36,329 bases of DNA, taken from IMG/VR virus record IMGVR_UViG_2737471834_000007; one strand, 5' to 3'. This document shows positions 1-29,840 of the stretch, piece after piece. The first letter of the stretch is position 1. Each line of letters opens with the position of its first letter. The translations under genes were made by a program, and so were the position numbers. The notes under the pieces were generated by a model. That model saw only the letters and a list, made by a program, of their open reading frames with translations. It did not search any database and was not told the origin of the DNA. Source of the DNA: a virus. Its lineage: Duplodnaviria; Heunggongvirae; Uroviricota; Caudoviricetes.

Positions 1-174
1 ATGGGGTTATTGAACAGGAATGATGTCGAAGTTGAATTACACCTTTGTACCAGAGACGATGAGCCTAAAACCGCAAAGCTCAAATTAAGAAACATCAAAG
101 ATGTTGATGCGTGTGAGCGCCTGATTGATAAACTGGCTGCTGTGGTAATAACGTCAAAGAAAAATGAAGAATAA
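1..174 (+). CDS. Small ORF (57 codons) beginning at the first base of the window; hypothetical, may be a complete small protein or the 3' end of a gene to the left
   Basis: Open frame from ATG at 1 to TAA at 172-174; followed by a weak hairpin near 207-238 and a strong one at 291-312. No recognisable motif. Confidence 0.3.
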   Translation: MGLLNRNDVEVELHLCTRDDEPKTAKLKLRNIKDVDACERLIDKLAAVVITSKKNEE

Positions 175-290
175 TTGATAAGCCAACCACCATCTCTTGA
201 AATAAAAAGCCCACGATTAATCTTGTGGACTTTTTGCATTCAGGCTTGCGAGATAGGGTGCCTTATCGACCTTAACCCTGGCAACCGATT

Positions 291-321
291 GACGGGGGAT
301 TGCTCCCCCGTCGCGGTTTTC
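291..321. terminator. Stem-loop GACGGGGGA-TTGC-TCCCCCGTC followed by a T-run on the + strand; also lies directly 3' of the hok-like ORF on the - strand
   Basis: Perfect 9-bp inverted repeat at 291-299/304-312, then GCGGTTTTCTT. Confidence 0.45.
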
Positions 322-462
322 TTACTGTTTACATTGTAAGAACGCCGCAAACTCCGCACCCCAGAAGCTCATCCGTATTTCACACAGCGAACCGTGCAAC
401 ATCCAGATGATAAGGATGACCGTCGCGCAGAACGTGATGGCCGTAAGCGATTTTTGCGACAT
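322..462 (-). CDS. Hok/Gef-family type I toxin (46 aa small membrane peptide), missing from the ORF track because it is under 60 aa
   Basis: Translation MSQKSLTAITFCATVILIIWMLHGSLCEIRMSFWGAEFAAFLQCKQ: hydrophobic N-terminus, SLCEI motif and E-x-AAFL-x-CK tail resemble E. coli HokA as recalled from memory. AAGGAG lies 8 nt upstream of the ATG at 462; stop TAA at 322-324. Confidence 0.6.
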   Translation of the reverse strand: MSQKSLTAITFCATVILIIWMLHGSLCEIRMSFWGAEFAAFLQCKQ

Positions 463-482
463 AGCGCTTGCTCCTTTTTCAT
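369..482 (-). CDS. mok-like overlapping reading frame (37 codons) starting 20 nt upstream of the hok-like start
   Basis: ATG at 482 in a different frame from the hok-like ORF, ending inside it, as in hok/mok loci; no SD (preceded by CCTCC). Speculative. Confidence 0.25.
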   Translation of the reverse strand: MKKEQALCRKNRLRPSRSARRSSLSSGCCTVRCVKYG

Positions 483-727
483 GGAGGCGCTAACCTGTCA
501 CTTGCTAGGTAGACGGGATAGGGCCTCGGTTAAACAAAAGTGTTTTCCGGGGCCTTTCCACATCCGGCCTTCTGGTTTACCCTCCGACCATCAGCCGAAA
601 GGCACCCGCGTGTAATGTACTGATTTCATATTGTATGTGCAATGCTCGTCACATTTTTTAAATACGTGTAAAACGTAATTGCGCAAGAAAATGTAGTTTT
701 TATTCTGCTGATTTCAGCGTAGAGAAT

Positions 728-1108
728 TTATGAGTTCTGAAATTCTTCTGCACGCCTTTCCAGTTCAGCCATGAAAGATGTTCTGGCTTTTTCGTGAGCA
801 TCGGGGGCCATGATGCTGATGATTTGTATATTGTTATAATCCATCCAGTGCCTGGTATAAACCAGATAGATATTTGAAGTTCTGTCTATCTGGGCCTTGC
901 TTTTCTTCCATGGTGGTTCCGATGGTAGTCTTATGTGTAATTTATATACAAACGAACCACATAGTCTTGCGTTATCTTCCCACTGTCCTTCATTGCCGAA
1001 TCTGTCAGGGAGAACGCCGGTATTTAACCAGTTCTCCAGAGCTTTTCCGTAAATTTTTGCAATATCCTGGTATTCAACATCTTTATGAATACTTACTTTG
1101 CTCGCCAT
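728..1108 (-). CDS. Hypothetical cytoplasmic protein (126 aa), second gene of a two-gene cargo operon
   Basis: Start ATG overlaps the upstream stop by 1 nt (TGATG). No signal peptide. A YKLHIRL...IYLVYTRHW...IQIISI stretch is faintly RelE/ParE-like but not convincing. Confidence 0.5.
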   Translation of the reverse strand: MASKVSIHKDVEYQDIAKIYGKALENWLNTGVLPDRFGNEGQWEDNARLCGSFVYKLHIRLPSEPPWKKSKAQIDRTSNIYLVYTRHWMDYNNIQIISIMAPDAHEKARTSFMAELERRAEEFQNS

Positions 1109-1734
1109 CAGGAAAACTCCGGAGCCGGGAGTCCCATATTTTTATGCTCGGCAATAATCATTGTTTTCACATTTTCGTCAGACAGCGTATTGCCCAGACT
1201 GGTAGTTTTTTCAGGTGCAGTGCTTCGCTCGATGGCGTTGATGGTATCACGAACGATAAATTCACCCTGCGCAATTGCCCGACCAAAACGAACCAGTTTA
1301 TTGCGATAGGCGATTCTTTGCTCAAGACTGTCCGGATACATTTTTGCCAGGTTATCCGGGGCCATTACAATCCTGACAGCCTCTTTAACACGGGTGTGCT
1401 GCCTGAGTGACTCTTCGCATATTTTCGTTATTTTTGCTATGTTGTCAGTAAACAGCGCTCCTTTGCCTCTGTTCTGACGCTCTTCAATGACGGCATTGAG
1501 TGCAGCGCGCATGTTGTTATTCAGCCCGTTAATATATTCAATAGCTTCTTCAAGAGGCAGAAACACCTGGCCGTCATGATGCTCAAATGTAAGCATTGAA
1601 ACTACTCTGGCGTGCGTCCCGGATTCAATAACTGTTGTTGGTAGTATCGTGCTTTTAGCTGGCACCGGAGCCAGTGATGCTGTCAGAGCTGCAGCAATGG
1701 CAGCAATGGCAGCAGACTTTGATTTTTGTTTCAT
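1108..1734 (-). CDS. Predicted secreted/periplasmic protein (208 aa from the ATG at 1734; the track ORF starts at GTG 1746), first gene of the cargo operon
   Basis: N-terminus MKQKSKSAAIAAIAAALTASLAPVPAKS looks like a Sec signal peptide; GGAG 7 nt upstream of the ATG at 1734. No catalytic motif recognised. Confidence 0.55.
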   Translation of the reverse strand: MKQKSKSAAIAAIAAALTASLAPVPAKSTILPTTVIESGTHARVVSMLTFEHHDGQVFLPLEEAIEYINGLNNNMRAALNAVIEERQNRGKGALFTDNIAKITKICEESLRQHTRVKEAVRIVMAPDNLAKMYPDSLEQRIAYRNKLVRFGRAIAQGEFIVRDTINAIERSTAPEKTTSLGNTLSDENVKTMIIAEHKNMGLPAPEFS

Positions 1735-2215
1735 AATGCACTCCACAGGTTGATGTGTTCAGCATATCGCAAATAGCAACTTGCATAAAGAAACGCCACA
1801 TCGGCATCGATCGTTTTACGCGTTTTTTTTCTTGTTGTGATCCTTTTTTCAGTTTTATTTTACCCGTTAATTTTGCGCAGGCCGCGCCGTGTCTGGCTTC
1901 TTTGTCTGATGGTTGTTTGATGCGATCCCTTCGTGATCGTTTTTCGTCTCACGTAAAGTATGAAAACTCTTTTAATATCATGCTGTTTTATTGCTCCAGC
2001 CATTTGTGCGATCGAAAAAATCTCTCTTAAAATTGCAAAAAATTTCAAAGTGTGAAATTTCAGAACTTCGCTTTTCCCCCAGTTACTGCGCTGGCTGGCG
2101 GTCATTTTTGCACGACAGAAAACTGAAAAAGCGTTTCAACACAAAACCCGCGGGTTGGAGGGGGTAGCGCGGTTTACGTGACGTGACACTTTACGTCATG
2201 TCTGGCTGGTTATGT

Positions 2216-2241
2216 GCAAAATTGCCGCCTCAGTGAGGCGC
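2216..2241 (-). terminator. Candidate intrinsic terminator ending the long late tail operon (short stem plus AAUUUU on the - strand)
   Basis: On the - strand: CGCCTCA-C-TGAGGCG stem followed by GCAATTTTG, about 85 nt after the spike gene stop. Confidence 0.35.
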
Positions 2242-2325
2242 TGTCGTAATGATTTGATGAAAGGAGTGGTAACGCATGGGCATGGCTCATGCGTTATGTA
2301 ACGCGTGTTTTACGTGGGATTTATG

Positions 2326-4065
2326 TCAGGCGATAAGGTCGCGGTATTTTTCCCGCAGGGAGGATGACTGTCTGGCATCACCGGTAAATTCACCACTGTT
2401 GGTGGGTGTGCCTGTGCCAGGATGTGCGTGTGTGGCAGTATGTGTTGCCAGTTGTTCAATGAGATCCAGAATATCAACGAACAACGTCATCAGGTTCAGG
2501 CTGTCGCCACCCTGTGAACCATTTCGGCCTATAAACAGGGTCGGCGCAGAGAGGGAAAGACCACCACTGGCGGTGGTGGTCTGTGTACCGCTGATGTTCT
2601 CTGTGATATTCCCGCTTACTGTGCTGTTAACATTACCGCCGATGGTTTCCTGCCTGTCAGCACTGATGCGGCGTATCTCTGCCTGTAATTCCGCAATAAG
2701 GCTGTTTGCTTTCATCCTGATATCACCGGTGGCCACAATACCGTAATCACCATCAGAACCATGGACGATCTGCCCTGCCATCAGTGAACTCGTCCCGAGT
2801 ACCGTGGTACTGTCTGTGGCCTGTACGGTTGTTGTGCGGGTTGTCGTCCGGCGGCTTTCCTGGTCGCTGGTTATGATTCGGTGTGCAGATTCTTCCCTGA
2901 TTTTCTGGTCCGTTTCCCGGTGCCATGTGCCGTCACGGGTAACCCTCTGAAATACTTCTGCACGCTGTTGCTGTAGCTGCTCGCCAGGCTGGATATCAGG
3001 AAGATTCAGTCCGGATGGGAGTATCTGCCTTATTACCGGTTTATCTGGCCGTCCTTCGATATGCGCGATTTCCACTATCGTTCCGGCTTCCGGATAAGAA
3101 AAACAACCGGCCTCATTTCCGGCCATGGGTACCGGAAGCGGCACAGCAGGATATACAGGCGTGTTGTTGCTATCGTTGCCGTTTTCGTCCAGTAACTGCA
3201 GGTCAACAGCATAACGTGGGCGAAAACTGTCTGCCACATCGCCAAGCGTCGTGGATTCTGTTGGCGAGATAACGCGGGCCAGTCTTGGGCGTAATGTTCC
3301 GTCAGCCAGCTCCGGAAACTGCGATTCTGTCTGACGGCGCAGAGGTGAGCTGGATACGACAGAACCATCCTGGCGAAACCTGTCCCATGTCAGTGTCATG
3401 GTTTCATTATGAATGGCCACACGCGTGATCCGTCCTGCAGGAAGGTTAACGCCGGGGCGCAGAGTCTCTATCAACATGATATCCATACTGTTGCCGGCGC
3501 TGTGCCCCAGTGCATATTCATCAGGAATTTCCGGGATGGTCAGCGATGCAAAGCGTGAGTCACTGGCGCTGCCAACGAATACAGAACCATCCGGCATGGG
3601 ATGCCAGACGTAATCCTGAATGCTGAATATCCTGCCAAGATGATCAAGCAGGCGGGTACCGCTTCCGCTGTGAGTGACGCAGGGTACTGGTGTGGATACA
3701 TAGGCAGATGACGCGGTAATAAACACGATACCGCTCTTTTTTCCGAGATCATCAAGAACATCACGCAGAGTCGGGTGCTGGATGACACACGGAAAGCTGA
3801 AATCCAGTACCGCGGCAGCTTCCCTGATGAACAGACGGCGGGCGCCGTTTTCTGCCGGTTGATCGCGCTCAACGTAACCTGAGAAATAACGCCAGGCCTG
3901 GCCATCACGCCCAAAATCAATCTGAATCATGGCACCGGCCAGCGTGCTGCGCTGATTCGGCAGGGTGACAAAACCTCTTCCTGATGCGTTCAGTGACAGG
4001 ACCAGACTGATGTCTGTTATTTCTGTCTGTTTACCGTTTACCATGCATCTCTGAATAATTTTCAT
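2326..4065 (-). CDS. Baseplate central spike protein (gpV/VgrG-like C-terminal half with a ~330 aa N-terminal extension)
   Basis: AGTIVEIAHIEGRPDKPVIRQILPSG resembles the gpV OB-fold motif; C-terminal ATHTATHAHPGTG (H-x-H) resembles the spike apex of P2 gpV as recalled from memory. Start overlaps the upstream stop. Confidence 0.5.
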   Translation of the reverse strand: MKIIQRCMVNGKQTEITDISLVLSLNASGRGFVTLPNQRSTLAGAMIQIDFGRDGQAWRYFSGYVERDQPAENGARRLFIREAAAVLDFSFPCVIQHPTLRDVLDDLGKKSGIVFITASSAYVSTPVPCVTHSGSGTRLLDHLGRIFSIQDYVWHPMPDGSVFVGSASDSRFASLTIPEIPDEYALGHSAGNSMDIMLIETLRPGVNLPAGRITRVAIHNETMTLTWDRFRQDGSVVSSSPLRRQTESQFPELADGTLRPRLARVISPTESTTLGDVADSFRPRYAVDLQLLDENGNDSNNTPVYPAVPLPVPMAGNEAGCFSYPEAGTIVEIAHIEGRPDKPVIRQILPSGLNLPDIQPGEQLQQQRAEVFQRVTRDGTWHRETDQKIREESAHRIITSDQESRRTTTRTTTVQATDSTTVLGTSSLMAGQIVHGSDGDYGIVATGDIRMKANSLIAELQAEIRRISADRQETIGGNVNSTVSGNITENISGTQTTTASGGLSLSAPTLFIGRNGSQGGDSLNLMTLFVDILDLIEQLATHTATHAHPGTGTPTNSGEFTGDARQSSSLREKYRDLIA

Positions 4066-4637
4066 TATTCACCATCCTTCACGCTGCCAACACCTGTTTT
4101 ATCCAGCCATCCTCCCAGCGTATTATTCACCGCTCCCCAGAATGCGTCCTGAGTATTGATTTGTTCGTTGTCAGACGTTGAACTGGTTCCTGTCTGTGTC
4201 TGCTGGTTAACCCTGGTTTTCTGTTCGCTGCTGCGGGCCTCTTTTTTCTCAGGTACGCTGAGTTTTTCCCTCAGGGTAAATGAGACCTGCCAGTTCATTT
4301 TCCCCTGTTGCTCCGTGACGTCGACACTGCCGGAGAAAACACCCTGTCGCATATTCACCGCTCTGGCAGTAGCGTTGGCAATCCTGTAGCATTTTTTATC
4401 TCCTCCATTGCCCGTGGCTTCGGCCAGTTGAAAAAGGCGGGTCAGTATTTTTTCATCGTTGAAATCAACAATGCCCGTAACCTTCATTTCTTTCGCTTTG
4501 CAGCCTTTCTGGGCGCTGCTGGTACTGGTTGACTGACCTGACATATCCTTATCCGGCAGGCGCAGACTGACGCTGACAGTGATATTGCGTAACAGGATCG
4601 CTTCTCCGTCCAGCGCCAGCACGATGATTTGTGTCAT
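4065..4637 (-). CDS. Hypothetical tail/baseplate-associated protein (190 aa)
   Basis: Translationally coupled to both neighbours (4-nt and 1-nt overlaps); Ser/Thr/Gln-rich C-terminal half; no motif recognised. Confidence 0.45.
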   Translation of the reverse strand: MTQIIVLALDGEAILLRNITVSVSLRLPDKDMSGQSTSTSSAQKGCKAKEMKVTGIVDFNDEKILTRLFQLAEATGNGGDKKCYRIANATARAVNMRQGVFSGSVDVTEQQGKMNWQVSFTLREKLSVPEKKEARSSEQKTRVNQQTQTGTSSTSDNEQINTQDAFWGAVNNTLGGWLDKTGVGSVKDGE

Positions 4638-5392
4638 TTCAGGGCACCTCTCAGCGCGGATAAATCCTCACCTGCAAAGAGCATAATAGTGGTCAGCACC
4701 CGGTCAGGGTGAGGAATGTTTTTTTTCATCATGATTGCGGCCTGCCTGGTATCACCGGAAAAACAGAAACTCCATACCGGGCATGCCCTGTTTTGCGAGT
4801 CCTGCTTTTCTCCGGTTAATCTGTCCATCAGGTTCTGGCGATCTTTTCTGAACTGTGCCAGCGCCTGATCCAGCCCGGAAAAGGACAGCGGAGGAGGGGA
4901 AACGGCTGTGCTGATCAGTTCAGTCTGTGCCAGACTCCTGGCTGTGCTGAGTGACAGGGTGGTGCTTTCCGGAAGTGTTGCCGCTACTTTTGCCGGGATC
5001 TGCATTTTGCTGACGGCCAGCGATAACTGGCTGGCGATCAGCCTGTTCATTCGCTTGATTTCCGGCAAAGGGAATACGTCGGCAAAACGTTTTGTCAGTG
5101 CAAGAAATTCTGAAGCTGAAGTGGCACTGAGCATCATTAGTACCATGTCGCAATCCCGGCTGCCCTCCAGTCTGTGCAGAATGGCATCAATGGCATTTTC
5201 CGGGCTGAGGTAAGCCCCTGAACGGGTGACGTTTCCCACACCTTCCGACCATGGATGGAGACAAAGTTGTGAGCAGTTGATATTCATTGCAGCAGGCTTA
5301 AGAAGACTGCTTTTCCATTCCGCTGGCTGCATATTCATACCATTTATTTCTGATGTGTTGTTGTTTTTTGATGTAATACACAAATTTAACAA
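4634..5392 (-). CDS. Hypothetical protein (up to 252 aa; true start uncertain, candidates at 5338, 5332 and 5287)
   Basis: Track ORF starts at TTG 5392; no candidate start has a clear SD. Stop overlaps the next gene start (ATGA). Confidence 0.4.
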   Translation of the reverse strand: MLNLCITSKNNNTSEINGMNMQPAEWKSSLLKPAAMNINCSQLCLHPWSEGVGNVTRSGAYLSPENAIDAILHRLEGSRDCDMVLMMLSATSASEFLALTKRFADVFPLPEIKRMNRLIASQLSLAVSKMQIPAKVAATLPESTTLSLSTARSLAQTELISTAVSPPPLSFSGLDQALAQFRKDRQNLMDRLTGEKQDSQNRACPVWSFCFSGDTRQAAIMMKKNIPHPDRVLTTIMLFAGEDLSALRGALK

Positions 5393-5494
5393 AGTGTATG
5401 CAAGGCTGTTTAATATGCCATTCTGTAGTTATATGATCCCGGACGACCATAAGGGATACTGCACTGCAGTGTCTTCTCCCTTGGAAAACCTTTT

Positions 5495-5526
5495 CTGCCA
5501 TACATTTGTATGGCAGGCTTTTTTTC
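5495..5526 (+). terminator. Strong hairpin plus T-run oriented for the + strand, in an AT-rich gap inside the - strand tail operon
   Basis: CTGCCATAC-ATTT-GTATGGCAG followed by GCTTTTTTT on the + strand. Confidence 0.4.
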
Positions 5527-5905
5527 AGCAACAGGTTCCCTGCTGCGTGTCGCTGTATTTCCCTTTCCCGAACAACCTTACTGCAAGATACATTAACCGT
5601 CTGCGCCAGCGGGGAACTCCCAGCACCGTCATCGCATCCAGAAATATCCTGTCCGCTTCCGCCTTCGTGCGCAGGGCATTGTCATACAGCCAGTCATGAA
5701 TAATCGCGGCTTTCGCATAACGACCATGCGGCGGGAGCAGTGCCCACAGAAGCCGGGGCACACTGGCAAGGTCCGTCACATATCCCTCCGGAACATAAAT
5801 CACATCATCCGGGTTATCCGTCAGCCAGAATTCAAACGGCTCAACCAGACGCCAGCGGTAATCATCCAGCATCTCCAGAATGGCCGGTGTGGTGAACTTA
5901 CTCAT
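5525..5905 (-). CDS. DUF1353-like phage protein (about 126 aa from the internal Met)
   Basis: GYVTDLASVPR and IHDWLYD motifs resemble the DUF1353 family; the start overlaps the end of the upstream chaperone gene. Confidence 0.5.
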   Translation of the reverse strand: MSKFTTPAILEMLDDYRWRLVEPFEFWLTDNPDDVIYVPEGYVTDLASVPRLLWALLPPHGRYAKAAIIHDWLYDNALRTKAEADRIFLDAMTVLGVPRWRRRLMYLAVRLFGKGKYSDTQQGTCC

Positions 5906-6508
5906 CATCCCCCTCCGGCCAGCCAACAGGATACGCACGAATATCCGGCAGTGCGGTCAACCCTGCCACTTCTTCTTTCATCCGGCGCTGGCGTTCATGG
6001 ATTTTAAACCCCTGCATCACCATCGCCGCATTCATCGCAGTATCCAGTTGTATCAGCTCTTCCGGCGTCAGAGTGACATCCTGATTATCCGCATCCGTCC
6101 AGAAAAAATGCTCAGGCAACAGCCCGTTTCCTGCCACCGCAACTACCGGTGTCAGTCTGGACTGTGAAGCCTTTCCGGCATCCCAGCGATGACCACTGAA
6201 TTCAAAAACAAAACTGCTGTTCTCCTGGCTGTCACGCCAGCGACTGATTTCACCGTATTTCTGATTTCTGGCCTTTTCCAGTATCTCCTCTGTCACCACA
6301 AACGGCGTGACCTCACCCCAGGCCCCTGATATCAGCCCTGACCAGAGCCTTAACCCGAATTCTGTCGGGTCTGAAGCTCTGGCAGTATAAGGTACATATA
6401 CCCGCTGACTGTCATCAGAACGGTCTGCCATGAACACCTCACAGGTAATGCTGCCGTCTTCATTAAAACGGGCATTGCGCACGTCCGCTTCTGAATTCCT
6501 GGTATCCA

Positions 6509-6509
<1 letters not shown>
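5898..6509 (-). CDS. Putative tail fibre assembly/chaperone protein for fibre 2 (203 aa)
   Basis: Immediately follows fibre gene 2 with a 1-nt TAATG overlap; position and size fit a fibre chaperone; ends in GWPEGDDE. Confidence 0.45.
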
Positions 6510-8077
<1,568 letters not shown>

Positions 8078-8096
8078 TTTTGATTATCTCCGGTTT

Positions 8097-8624
8097 TTAT
8101 TTTGTTTCCGGTACAGCAGGCCAGTTAATTGCCTCAAAGTTATCCTTATTATCAATGTCTGAAATATTCAGAGAATTAAGCTCACGGATATACATCATCC
8201 ACTGAGTGAGTTTAAGCCTGTCATCGTCACTGATTATTCCAAGACTGAGCTCTGTCTGCCAGTCACTGGTAATACTCCTGGCTTCTGACAGTAACCTGTT
8301 GCGTTGTGTTTCAGCCTGTTGCCGGTAATCAACAGGAACCGGTAATATCTCACCATCCCTGTAATACCAGCGAGCTTCAATACAGAACCCTTCAGGAAGT
8401 TCGTCAACCTCCACAATGGAGAAACCTGCCGGATAGAGTCGTGAAGCATCCTCCGCCATGGAGTAAATCACTCCGGTGTCCGGATGAATGCACAATTTAT
8501 ATTTCTTCGTGAATTTATTGACAGAATCATAAAAATCCTGACCATCTTCACTGCAGAAATACTGGATACCCTCACCATAAGGCATGTTTTCAGGGTAATA
8601 GCGTGAAACGTTTCGGAGTTCCAT
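8097..8624 (-). CDS. Tail fibre assembly protein for fibre 1 (about 175 aa from MELRNV)
   Basis: C-terminal LTQWMMYIRELNSLN...INWP resembles the conserved Tfa/gpG tail; AAGGGA SD 7 nt upstream of the ATG at 8624, which lies just past the fibre 1 stop. Confidence 0.65.
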   Translation of the reverse strand: MELRNVSRYYPENMPYGEGIQYFCSEDGQDFYDSVNKFTKKYKLCIHPDTGVIYSMAEDASRLYPAGFSIVEVDELPEGFCIEARWYYRDGEILPVPVDYRQQAETQRNRLLSEARSITSDWQTELSLGIISDDDRLKLTQWMMYIRELNSLNISDIDNKDNFEAINWPAVPETK

Positions 8625-8635
8625 AATGTTGTCCC

Positions 8636-10189
8636 TTAACCGGATATGGTGCGCCATGCACCATTAATATAAATCTGTTTTGCTTTGTAATAGACACCGC
8701 CAATATTATCTGCAGAATGTGAGCCAGTTTCCTGAACGTTAATACCAGAAAGCACACAACCTGCCGGTGCACGGAATGTCCAGGAAATTTCATTACCACC
8801 TGGATTGTGAAAGGTTTCGTTTGTGTACTGTTCGTTCTGTACATAGCGGGCATCAGCTGCAGCCTGCGTCATTCCCGCTGAAATGGTGATATCCTTCGTA
8901 CCATCAAATGCAACACCATTTATTTTTCGTGCGTTCTGTAATTTTGTGGCGCTGCCGGCATTACCGGTTGTGTTCTGGTTGCCCTGGGTATTCACACCCG
9001 GGAGACTGATATCTCCTGAACCATCAAAACTGACGCCGCCGATTTTCCTGCTGTTTTTTAATTTTGTAGCCGTACCTGAATTGCCTGATATATCGGTGAT
9101 TGTAATATCTTCCGACAGTTCCTTACCGTTGACTTTCCTTGTTGACGGAACGCGACGTTTTGCCTCATCCATAGCGTTCTTTACGGCTTTGGGAGTGGCG
9201 GCACGATCTTCCCTGTCACTGTCTGTATCACTGCAATATTGCGCAAATCCCTTTTCGTCCAGCGTGGCGTCAGGGTGATTGCGTGAGCGCACGTGGGCTG
9301 CCAGTGCATCGCTGTTTTCTTCATCAGGTGTCTGTGGACGGACATCCTCAACATGACCGGCAGATAATACTGCCAGTGGTGCAACATAATGTCTGAATCC
9401 GTTATTATCGGTGTACTCTTCAGTTACCGGGCGCGTATTCATATTCCCGGCGTCTGGTTGTCTGGCAGTAAATACAAATACCGTTTTCCAGCAGCCTGAT
9501 ACATGTCCATGCCAGCTGGCATCAATCAGAATGATGTCATTTTCAGAGGCGGTAAGTGTGAAGGGCTCCGTTAACTGAACACGCAGGCCACCGATATAAG
9601 CCACACCGGCACTGATGGTAGCTGTGCTGTTAATGGCATCGTAACTGACATGCAGGCTGTTACCCAGACATGCGGCATCACCATAGTAATCAAAGGCCAG
9701 CAGACGACGCGATTCATCCATTCCTGTCAGTCTGGCAGTAAAATCAATCTGCCAGACGTCAGCGGTGACGTTTACCTGCATGGCTTCGGCTGCCCCTTCG
9801 AATTCCATGGCGAATGTGCGAATCAGGTTATTGCCCTGAATGCCATTGGCGGTCCTGATTTTCTGCTGTAGTGGTGTATGGGCAATCATACACAGTACAT
9901 GGCTTTCTTCGTGATACAGCCCAATCCAGTTATATTCAAAATCACCTGCGGTGGTGTCCAGAATCACGGAAAATGCAACCGTATCAGGTTCAAGCATGCC
10001 GAACTGTGTTACCGGAACGCGGCAGACAATATATTTTTCATCCGGCAGTTCTTCATCCACCGATATCGGTGCACTGATATCCATATCCGGAATGCAGGCA
10101 AAGATAAAAGTGTCCGGTCTGGCCGGTTCGTTGCTGATAAGCTGGTTTGCACACCAGTGCTCATATTGTCGCGTAATTACCGTGCTCAT
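8636..10189 (-). CDS. Tail fibre protein 1 (517 aa)
   Basis: Collar motif SRNHPDATLDEKGFAQ...AATPKAVKNAMDEA matches the P2 gpH/lambda Stf-type conserved region as recalled from memory; two ~36-aa fibre repeats follow; N-terminus shared with fibre 2. Confidence 0.7.
   Translation of the reverse strand: MSTVITRQYEHWCANQLISNEPARPDTFIFACIPDMDISAPISVDEELPDEKYIVCRVPVTQFGMLEPDTVAFSVILDTTAGDFEYNWIGLYHEESHVLCMIAHTPLQQKIRTANGIQGNNLIRTFAMEFEGAAEAMQVNVTADVWQIDFTARLTGMDESRRLLAFDYYGDAACLGNSLHVSYDAINSTATISAGVAYIGGLRVQLTEPFTLTASENDIILIDASWHGHVSGCWKTVFVFTARQPDAGNMNTRPVTEEYTDNNGFRHYVAPLAVLSAGHVEDVRPQTPDEENSDALAAHVRSRNHPDATLDEKGFAQYCSDTDSDREDRAATPKAVKNAMDEAKRRVPSTRKVNGKELSEDITITDISGNSGTATKLKNSRKIGGVSFDGSGDISLPGVNTQGNQNTTGNAGSATKLQNARKINGVAFDGTKDITISAGMTQAAADARYVQNEQYTNETFHNPGGNEISWTFRAPAGCVLSGINVQETGSHSADNIGGVYYKAKQIYINGAWRTISG
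8879..9109 (-). repeat. Tandem ~36-aa tail fibre repeat (two copies) in fibre 1
   Basis: SGNSGTATKLKNSRKIGGVSFDGSGDISLP versus TGNAGSATKLQNARKINGVAFDGTKDITIS. Confidence 0.6.
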
Positions 10190-10194
10190 GATGA

Positions 10195-28786: not shown

Positions 28787-29196
28787 TCCCCGGCAGTTGC
28801 CCGTTGAAACGCGGCACGGTACAGCACAAGAAGGCGCCGGTATTCGTCAATAAAGCCTTCTGCCGTTTTAATTCCTTTCACTGCCACGCTGTGGGTTGTC
28901 ATGTCCAGTACGAGCGCCATTTCTGACGATGACCAGCTGATAACGCTGCTGTCGAGTCCGTTGATGTGGAACAGGCCCAGATTCAGGCTGTGATTCAGGT
29001 CTCTGACGTCAACACGGTAACGGTCATCAACGGTGAAGGAGAAATCACCGGATGTGGCGGCGCTGCTGGCTGCCTGTTTACAGGCGAGGCGGTAATAGTC
29101 GTGCAGATCATTGAGACGGGAAGCGAGGCGTGGATCCACCGCCCACATCCAGTTAAAAAAATCCTGAATATCTGAAAGTCCCTTAACGTTCTTCAT
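28783..29196 (-). CDS. Hypothetical early protein (137 aa)
   Basis: CGGAGG SD; ATGA overlap with the replication gene start. Confidence 0.5.
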   Translation of the reverse strand: MKNVKGLSDIQDFFNWMWAVDPRLASRLNDLHDYYRLACKQAASSAATSGDFSFTVDDRYRVDVRDLNHSLNLGLFHINGLDSSVISWSSSEMALVLDMTTHSVAVKGIKTAEGFIDEYRRLLVLYRAAFQRATAGE

Positions 29197-29264
29197 GTGA
29201 ACCTCCGGTAACAGACGTGCGGAAGCCTCCCGCGCACGGGTGCGGGATGGCTTCAGGATATTGA

Positions 29265-29492
29265 TTAGTGGTGGTATTGCTGGCTGATGAGGTCCTGCAG
29301 CTCCGCGAGATCATCCGCCAGGTAGCTGAAGACTGCCGCGTAATACCCGGCAGCGATACCGCCGTTAAGCCGATGTAATACGTTTGACTGCATGATGAAG
29401 GCGACAGATGCAGCCCGATGGAGTCTGCGGTTGATTTCGGTGCGGATGTGAAGGCGCTCAGCGCGGGCGCGCTGTTGTTTGCGGTTTGCCAT
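29265..29492 (-). CDS. Hypothetical small basic protein (75 aa)
   Basis: GAAGAGG SD upstream of the ATG; Arg-rich N-terminus. Confidence 0.45.
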   Translation of the reverse strand: MANRKQQRARAERLHIRTEINRRLHRAASVAFIMQSNVLHRLNGGIAAGYYAAVFSYLADDLAELQDLISQQYHH

Positions 29493-29780
29493 GGTATGGC
29501 CTCTTCGTTTGTAAGTTTGGGAAACTCACCATCCAGAGGTTCCAAGCTCGGGGTGGCGAGACGTACGGGGTTGGAACTACCGGAAAACGAAGAAACCGGC
29601 CCGACCAGAGTCGGCCCCGTACGCCCCGCCATAATTTGGGTGCGAAAACGGCGTGGCGATACGGTACGCACAAAAAAACCGCTGGCGCGGCTGTGCGCTT
29701 CGTTTGTCGGCGGGGTTCCAATCCCGGCACCCGTTTTATGAGGTGCAGCGGGAATGTAACCCGACAGATTGCGGCATGGC

Positions 29781-29840
29781 AAGCGGTTTTTTTGTGTGTG
29801 CATGATGATCACTCAGTCCGGTAACAGTTCACGGAGCACG
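29781..29840. repeat. Direct repeat copy A (~57-60 bp) at the 3' end of the methyltransferase gene
   Basis: About 85% identical to 30876-30932 by hand alignment (AAGCGGTTTTT..GTGTGTGCATG...ACTCAGTCCGGTA.CAGTTC). Confidence 0.6.

Follow-up and report, generated by a model that had tools for sequence, protein, structure and literature searches.

A gap in the late genes of a P2-family prophage probably holds an independent small-RNA gene. The prophage was analysed as IMG/VR virus record IMGVR_UViG_2737471834_000007, a stretch of 36,329 nucleotides (nt) called the window below, and the gap separates a DUF1353 gene from a gene similar to HP1 ORF33. Comparison of homologous loci suggests a plus-strand gene convergent with DUF1353, encoding a small RNA (sRNA) with its own promoter and a terminator plus U-tail of the Hfq type. 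The whole conserved unit occupies positions 5364..5526 (about 160 bp) and comprises an upstream box, a candidate promoter, the predicted sRNA of about 80 nt (5443..5525) and a terminator. Its left edge is the position where homology with a lambdoid prophage (locus L001, also found as IMG/VR contig L007) begins, and subtypes A, B, B', C, C' and D can be aligned. The unit appears to be undescribed and looks like a candidate modest addition to the known class of prophage-encoded sRNAs. Judging by its relatives, the gap is also a transferable unit brought in with the DUF1353 cassette, a point missed by an earlier sequence-only reading of this DNA. That reading had proposed a small or antisense RNA, or else a bidirectional attenuator. 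The former now has comparative support from the terminator, a -35/-10 pair in 6/6 variants and the upstream box, whereas the latter is not supported.

The gap is 186 nt long (5339-5524), not about 130 nt as estimated earlier, because the ORF33-like gene starts at ATG 5338. The GC content is 0.32-0.35 across 5300-5450, compared with about 0.5-0.6 on both sides. The plus strand contains a hairpin with the stem 5494-5503/5508-5517 (arms TCTGCCATAC and GTATGGCAGG, loop ATTT), followed after a single C by a run of seven T at 5519-5525. The stem has ten pairs, one more than had been noted, with five G-C pairs and one terminal U·G. The TGA codon of the DUF1353 gene shares the last T of the run (1-nt overlap). 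The predicted free energy of the hairpin RNA is -15.2 kcal/mol, against -4.05 ± 1.85 kcal/mol for dinucleotide shuffles (z = -6.0). Both the scanner call and the fold energy identify 5494..5525 as a canonical intrinsic (Rho-independent) terminator on the plus strand. Thus the hairpin and T-run seen previously in this AT-rich gap stand. The conservation check proposed at that time also came out positively, as the hairpin and the T-run are present in all homologous copies found, in several genomic contexts, the T-run being missing only in the L149 fusion described below. Otherwise near-identical prophages (L139-L148) differ in the length of the run (T6, T7, T8 or T9; window 5518-5525), which could adjust termination efficiency or Hfq binding. 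As a separate observation, region 1-12000 of the window contains 32 terminator-like sites, compared with 11.6 ± 3.7 in shuffled sequences, an approximately threefold excess. Among these sites, 26 of the 32 are on the plus strand, antisense to late genes. This excess may reflect a composition bias or selection against antisense transcription.

A sigma-70-like promoter, TTAATA-16 nt-TATGAT, was predicted at 5410..5437 (+) by the promoter and terminator scanner, which was run blind on four loci. A -35/-10 pair on the same strand was observed at the homologous position in 6/6 variants, 52-70 nt upstream of the stem. The corresponding hexamers are TTGATG-16-TATAAT in the A unit of L001, TTGATG-17-TATACT in L005, and TTTATA-16-CATAAT in the B unit of L001 and the C and D units of L137. 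The start of the predicted sRNA was derived from the position of the -10 hexamer (5432-5437).

The promoter is preceded by a conserved box, TTTGA-TGTAAT-ACACA (5367..5382, +), which resembles the CRP site TGTGA-N6-TCACA with two mismatches. In all aligned copies the box is centred on AATACACAAA. Compared with the CRP core, two mismatches (8/10 positions match) were counted in eight of the nine copies scored and three (7/10) in B'; the box of the L001 A unit was scored on an incomplete extract, so that its count of two is a manual reading. Relative to the assumed start of transcription, the box centre lies at about -69.5 in A, B and D (-70.5 in L005), at -59.5 in C and C', and at -65.5 in B'. 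The C and C' copies have an exact 10-nt deletion between the box and the -35 hexamer. Class I CRP sites are centred near -61.5 or -71.5. A 10-nt deletion, which keeps the helical phase, fits a class I activator site and suggests that the box is a candidate for CRP binding. However, matches of the same quality occur by chance at 18 positions of the 36-kb window.

The relatives of the unit are about 65-90% identical to it and come from three kinds of context: the same HP1-like prophage in many draft genomes, lambdoid prophages after the DUF1353 gene, and islands rich in insertion sequences (IS). All aligned copies have the same layout, with the box, the -35 hexamer (TTTATA, TTGATG or TTAATA), the -10 hexamer (CATAAT, TATAAT or TATGAT) 16-17 nt downstream, the body, and the hairpin with T6-T9. 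The hairpin common to all is CCTGCCATAYATCTGTATGGCAGG, and the body varies from 77 to 96 nt and differs between subtypes. In L001/L007, homology spans the DUF1353 gene and the whole gap, and a second unit, B, lies about 190 nt upstream of the window-like A unit in the same orientation. In such B-then-A tandems of lambdoid prophages each unit is followed by a DUF1353 3' end or its remnant. Searches with B, and then with the third type C, yielded further copies. In strain R1, B is found beyond a YadA-like moron and a divergent B' adjoins DUF1353. In L137 and L120, C and D are convergent and 1.3 kb apart within IS-rich islands. Thus the unit behaves as a gene-like module, since it is found away from DUF1353 in these islands and in tandem in lambdoid prophages.

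Two loci of this family are rearranged. In L149 (positions 3001-3260; E. coli NS-NP030), C' (+) and an inverted D (-) are fused tail-to-tail exactly at a single shared hairpin that lacks a T-run on both flanks, which looks like the outcome of recombination or deletion within the palindrome. L005/L006 is a degraded copy; its identity of 72% extends from the 5' end of the ORF33-like gene through gap and hairpin into the last DUF1353 codons, where an IS is inserted. As this copy lies between transposase fragments, an IS left end or a miniature inverted-repeat transposable element was considered and rejected: the locus aligns as a degraded ORF33-gap-DUF1353 junction. A link to IS elements was also rejected for the C-type loci, where the neighbouring IS200/IS605 tnpA does not overlap the unit. 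The island with the degraded copy also contains an Rfam match to group II intron D1-D4-4 (71.6 bits, L005 2940-3075).

Conservation is distributed unevenly along the unit. Over six subtypes, the mean pairwise identity is 0.84 for the terminator stem-loop, 0.77 for the upstream box (computed over 5369-5384), 0.76 for the T-run, 0.64 for the -35 and 0.58 for the -10 hexamer, and 0.36-0.49 for spacers, body and flanks. This layout, with a nearly constant box and terminator and a diversified body, is typical of horizontally spread base-pairing sRNAs that end in a terminator and U-tail of the Hfq type. The same figures bear on another explanation, in which the unit is only a terminator or insulator: a boundary hairpin would keep antisense transcripts that arise from morons, the prophage end or host genes out of the tail-fibre cassette, and the hexamers and box would be incidental. 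Indeed, conservation is highest in the terminator and poor in the body; the unit of lambdoid prophages stands at the end of the late operon beside morons or host DNA, and with some relatives homology starts exactly at the hairpin (5491). However, a boundary element does not account for the fixed position of the -35/-10 pair in all six diverged variants, for a box 70 nt upstream that is far better conserved than the DNA between it and the -35 hexamer (identity 0.36), or for a deletion that leaves this box in helical phase. Moreover, in the window the upstream plus strand offers nothing to insulate against other than the antisense strand of ORF33-35. On balance we consider an insulator possible but unlikely, and an sRNA gene the better explanation.

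The family is rare. A BLAST search of 5,426 complete E. coli genomes yielded subtype A in 16 and subtypes B, C or D in 28 genomes, mostly of bovine isolates. The exact ORF34 protein of the window was found in 282 blocks of public assemblies, and the unit is kept in 10/10 of the places listed, which differ mainly in T-run length. No match to any subtype was found among 50,697 records of a phage collection. Two scans of IMG/VR with hairpin patterns gave four contigs, of which L007 alone carries the unit, and a scan of viral contigs with the ORF33 protein gave no match. The hairpin pattern had no match in genome contigs, and a DUF1353 protein scan of the same contigs yielded only distant Caulobacter-type relatives. 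A loose pattern returned 120 mostly chance loci from metagenome contigs, the only real ones being L106, L023, L030 and L120.

HP1-like prophages without DUF1353 have no gap at this place: the tail-fibre gene runs into the ORF33-like gene or ends almost at its start. Thus the unit came with the lambdoid-type tail-fibre cassette and is not native to the HP1-type late operon. In lambdoid prophages the late genes end with DUF1353, and the same hairpin comes next, beside morons or host DNA. Comparison of these contexts indicates that the unit travels with the 3' edge of the cassette formed by the fibre, DUF4376 and DUF1353 genes. The unit could then be regarded as a mere recombination linker or scar, with the box and the palindrome persisting as patches of homology for exchange of tail-fibre cassettes. 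The homology breakpoints lie at the unit edges (5364 with L001; 5491, exactly at the hairpin, with L002), the B-then-A tandems each carry a DUF1353 3' end or remnant, the L149 units are joined exactly at the hairpin, and the same cassette occurs in lambdoid and HP1-like phages. All this is compatible with an sRNA gene and does not exclude it, whereas the strand-specific T-run, the asymmetry of G·U pairs described below, the promoter hexamers and the helical-phase deletion are left unexplained. Thus it is improbable that the unit is a linker and nothing else.

The strand on which the hairpin acts can be judged from its substitutions. On the minus strand the stem is preceded by A7 and followed in subtype A by AAAAGGUUUU. 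No U-run follows the minus-strand stem in any subtype (A, B, C, D), so the hairpin is not a bidirectional terminator, and the scanner calls a terminator on the plus strand only. Nine distinct hairpins were compared over the core ten pairs, giving 90 cells. In the plus-strand RNA all 90 cells are paired, six of them as G·U, compared with 84/90 in the minus-strand RNA; in the latter these six cells, which fall in four pairs, become A·C mismatches. One stem pair changes from C-G to U-A by compensation, with the U·G of the window as an intermediate. The 4-5 independent stem substitutions tolerated only by the plus-strand RNA are suggestive, with p of roughly 0.03-0.06 under symmetry. Together with the missing U-tract, they speak against the bidirectional attenuator proposed earlier.

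The same data bear on a purely minus-strand function, such as a stabiliser of the 3' end, a processing site or an attenuator of the late mRNA after DUF1353, which would set the ratio of tail-fibre to ORF33-35 products. In the window as in L001, L002 and L120, DUF1353 ends directly before the hairpin, which is about as stable on the minus strand (-15.0 kcal/mol). However, the mismatch cells and the absence of a U-run oppose it. Furthermore, ORF33-35, which include the HP1_ORF34 'baseplate complex protein', need read-through, and in relatives ORF33 is coupled to the upstream gene. A minus-strand role thus seems quite improbable.

The predicted sRNA itself would fold into a 5' stem-loop (5454-5474), a C/U-rich stretch UCUUCUCCCUUGG (5472-5484) and the terminator with its U7 tail. 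The fold of region 5440-5530 has z = -4.1. The other subtypes have a stem-loop at the equivalent place with a different sequence. It was not retained as a conserved structure, as RNAalifold recovers the terminator alone. A, B, B' and D share UUCCC and CUCCC motifs, which may serve as a seed or, since they can pair with an upstream GGGA, form a stem. The 3' end has the sequence expected of Hfq-type sRNAs, with the U7 tail (T6-T9 in relatives) and, in subtype A, UUUU directly 5' of the stem; the U-stretch upstream of the stem is weaker in C and D.

Several observations weigh against an sRNA gene. The 5' stem-loop is significant in only two of the six bodies, and marginally so (z about -2), and the RNA body is the least conserved part of the unit. 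No trans targets above shuffled controls were found within the window, where the duplexfold energies looked unreliable. Covariation in the stem is not significant, as 51/500 shuffles reach the score; this weakness is due to the fact that the stem hardly varies. The promoter of the window matches the consensus at 9/12 positions and lies in AT-rich DNA. The 5' stem is missing from the L005/L006 copy, which lies within degraded DNA. Finally, since the family is rare (16-28 of 5,426 genomes) and absent from phage records, the sampling is shallow and the copies are related.

A protein product of the gap is extremely improbable: the 77-aa minus-strand open reading frame (ORF; 5298..5531 in the mechanical ORF list), held earlier to be a possible gene, is open in the window, but its TTG start overlaps the DUF1353 stop, it has no Pfam match, the residues homologous to it are scattered over all three frames in L001 and L005, and its frame is shifted by a 1-nt indel in the T-run (T6-T9) in L106 and, among near-identical relatives, in L140-L146. 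Nor does any other ORF of the gap, on either strand, show conservation among the homologous copies compared. The plus-strand ORFs are antisense shadows of the neighbouring genes, beginning in or upstream of the terminator; a 31-aa ORF begins within the hairpin. As every credible gene around the gap is on the minus strand, the earlier statement that the plus strand has no credible gene here holds for proteins.

In Rfam 15, the gathering threshold was not reached by the unit in the window, nor by those in L001, L002, L005 and L007. The best scores below threshold were 24.9 bits for ncS54 (gathering 43), 23.8 for mmgR (41) and 14.2 for Esr41 (102), and these matches are driven by the terminator. 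The window also contains two known regulatory RNAs at gathering level, C4 antisense RNA (RF01695, 29549-29636, -, 83 bits) and IsrK (RF01394, 29672-29746, -, 68 bits). They are adjacent and overlap mechanical ORFs at 29183-29812. Both are different loci from other families, and the unit at 5364-5526 matches neither.

Similar sRNAs, HnrS (PMC13502914) and Pas (PMC8550237; bioRxiv 10.64898/2026.05.13.724894), are known from late regions of prophages in E. coli. HnrS (EcOnc10/11/12) is a 66-nt Hfq-dependent prophage sRNA of enterohaemorrhagic E. coli with its own start site and an intrinsic terminator, supported by Northern blots, dRNA-seq (differential RNA sequencing), Term-seq and the target hha, and multicopy through acquisition of several prophages (PMC13502914). 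In Sp9 of strain Sakai it lies at 1779522-1779569 (-), between plus-strand endopeptidase and terminase genes (Tree et al. supplement, PMC4104026). It is the closest analogue of the unit in layout, being short, with its own start and an intrinsic terminator, and situated in the late region on the strand opposite to the late genes. However, HnrS is at the junction of lysis and packaging genes and the unit, which is predicted from sequence, is at the tail-fibre end. An alignment showed no significant similarity between the Sakai HnrS locus and any unit subtype, and blastn of three unit queries against the Sakai genome gave no match.

The Pas sRNAs of enteropathogenic E. coli (PasA-D) are intergenic, of the Hfq type, exist as sequence variants, are horizontally spread and vary in copy number, and PasB is described as embedded in a phage structural-gene operon (PMC8550237; bioRxiv 10.64898/2026.05.13.724894). 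They occur in hundreds to thousands of genomes, whereas the unit family occurs in about 0.5% of complete E. coli genomes. Strain E2348/69, which carries Pas sRNAs and belongs, like Sakai, to the genome collection that was searched, has no blastn match to the unit; this comparison was made via the genome and not with the Pas sequences themselves.

The oop RNA of phage lambda is a 77-nt antisense RNA transcribed from pO, ending at an intrinsic terminator and complementary to the 3' end of cII. Like the unit in this window, it has its own promoter and terminator and is convergent with a phage operon and complementary to its mRNA. It differs in that the sequences are unrelated, and in that oop lies in the early region and overlaps a coding 3' end, while the unit overlaps DUF1353 by 1 nt. 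Unlike oop, the unit in lambdoid hosts lies beyond the last late gene.

If the gap is an sRNA gene, its role may be twofold. In the lysogen the RNA would be made from its own promoter, possibly dependent on cyclic AMP (cAMP) and CRP, and would act in trans on mRNAs. Recombination appears to have placed the cassette between the gene for tail-fibre assembly and the baseplate block ORF33-35, and the putative sRNA gene therefore lies inside the late operon. During lytic growth, minus-strand late transcription would pass through the hairpin to ORF33-35; such read-through is plausible because there is no minus-strand U-tract. The sRNA would be fully complementary to the DUF1353-ORF33 intercistronic mRNA, and thus could lead to antisense pairing or processing, or to interference between convergent promoters. 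A broader scheme can be suggested, in which the units form a family of prophage sRNA genes that are under cAMP-CRP control, keep a fixed scaffold around interchangeable bodies and travel at the 3' edges of tail-fibre cassettes. Here the sRNA would act on ORF33-35 as an antisense brake or a processing signal gated by nutrients. This scheme is rather doubtful. If true, such control of the baseplate genes ORF33-35, which are essential, would make the completion of virions, or the leaky expression of late genes in lysogens, depend on host physiology.

The window has the features of a P2-family prophage with an HP1-like order of tail genes, including a P2-type capsid, a GPA replication protein, Baseplate_J, Tail_P2_I and an integrase. 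A near-identical copy is flanked by serS, and this flank matches E. coli at 100% identity, which shows that the host of the prophage is E. coli. Around the gap, a Pfam scan and gene calls identified, in the direction of late transcription (all -), a 522-aa collagen-repeat tail fibre (6509-8077), a DUF4376 gene (5898-6509) and the DUF1353 gene (5525..5905; PF07087, E = 2e-33), the last of the lambdoid-type tail-fibre cassette. The DUF1353 product is called as 126 aa in related contigs, and the mechanical ORF reaches 5938. Beyond the gap, the distal block starts with the HP1 ORF33-like gene (4634..5338). Its length was given earlier as 252 aa, after the mechanical ORF; alignment of two homologues (L003/L004) and the gene calls in ten related contigs (L139-L148) place the start at ATG 5338, which gives 234 aa. 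It is followed by the gene for the HP1_ORF34 baseplate protein (4065-4637, E = 2e-57) and a 579-aa spike-like gene whose spike-domain matches are below threshold.

Transcription of the ORF33-like gene must cross the unit. Other candidate elements on this DNA were rejected. Neither a P2-type late promoter (TGT-N12-ACA) nor a sigma-70 promoter for ORF33-35 was found on the minus strand by the scanner, and by eye only TGT-N14/15-ACA was seen, within the box. A 7-nt resemblance to site-specific inversion sites (gix/cix-like) is missing in the L001 copy.

Two tail-fibre sets are arranged in series at 5525-10189 (-). The first consists of a 517-aa P2/HP1-type fibre and a Caudo_TAP assembly protein. 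The second, of the lambdoid type, comprises the 522-aa fibre, DUF4376 and DUF1353, and its DUF1353 end is 91-96% identical to cassettes of lambdoid E. coli prophages. This arrangement therefore indicates exchange of host-range modules across phage families. The end of the prophage carries a cargo block (226-1746, -). It contains a YafO-family toxin gene (728-1108), a 212-aa ORF without a family upstream of this gene, and a hok/mokW-like region that shares about 91% identity with phages of the Xuanwuvirus/P88 type. In assembly GCA_031626895.1, the 5.4-Mb E. coli contig JANFJY010000001.1 contains four copies of the ORF34 region (L143-L146), each at a different site of the chromosome. They adjoin serS, a PEP-mutase/ICL gene, yidD and a mom/com pair, which is unusual for a P2-family prophage.

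Prophage sRNAs are increasingly seen as a means by which temperate phages rewire host regulation, and only a few model strains have supplied the known E. coli examples, HnrS, Pas, AgvB/AsxR, DicF and IsrK. The unit described here, if real, would add an sRNA family found mainly in bovine-associated E. coli. As this regulator would be linked to an exchangeable tail-fibre cassette, swaps of host range would also move a regulator. The constant scaffold of promoter and terminator around a diversifying body would be a natural case of sRNA evolution, and the position in the late operon would provide a case of interplay between a convergent sRNA and late mRNA. For annotation, the gap should be treated neither as a coding gene nor as a terminator of the late operon.

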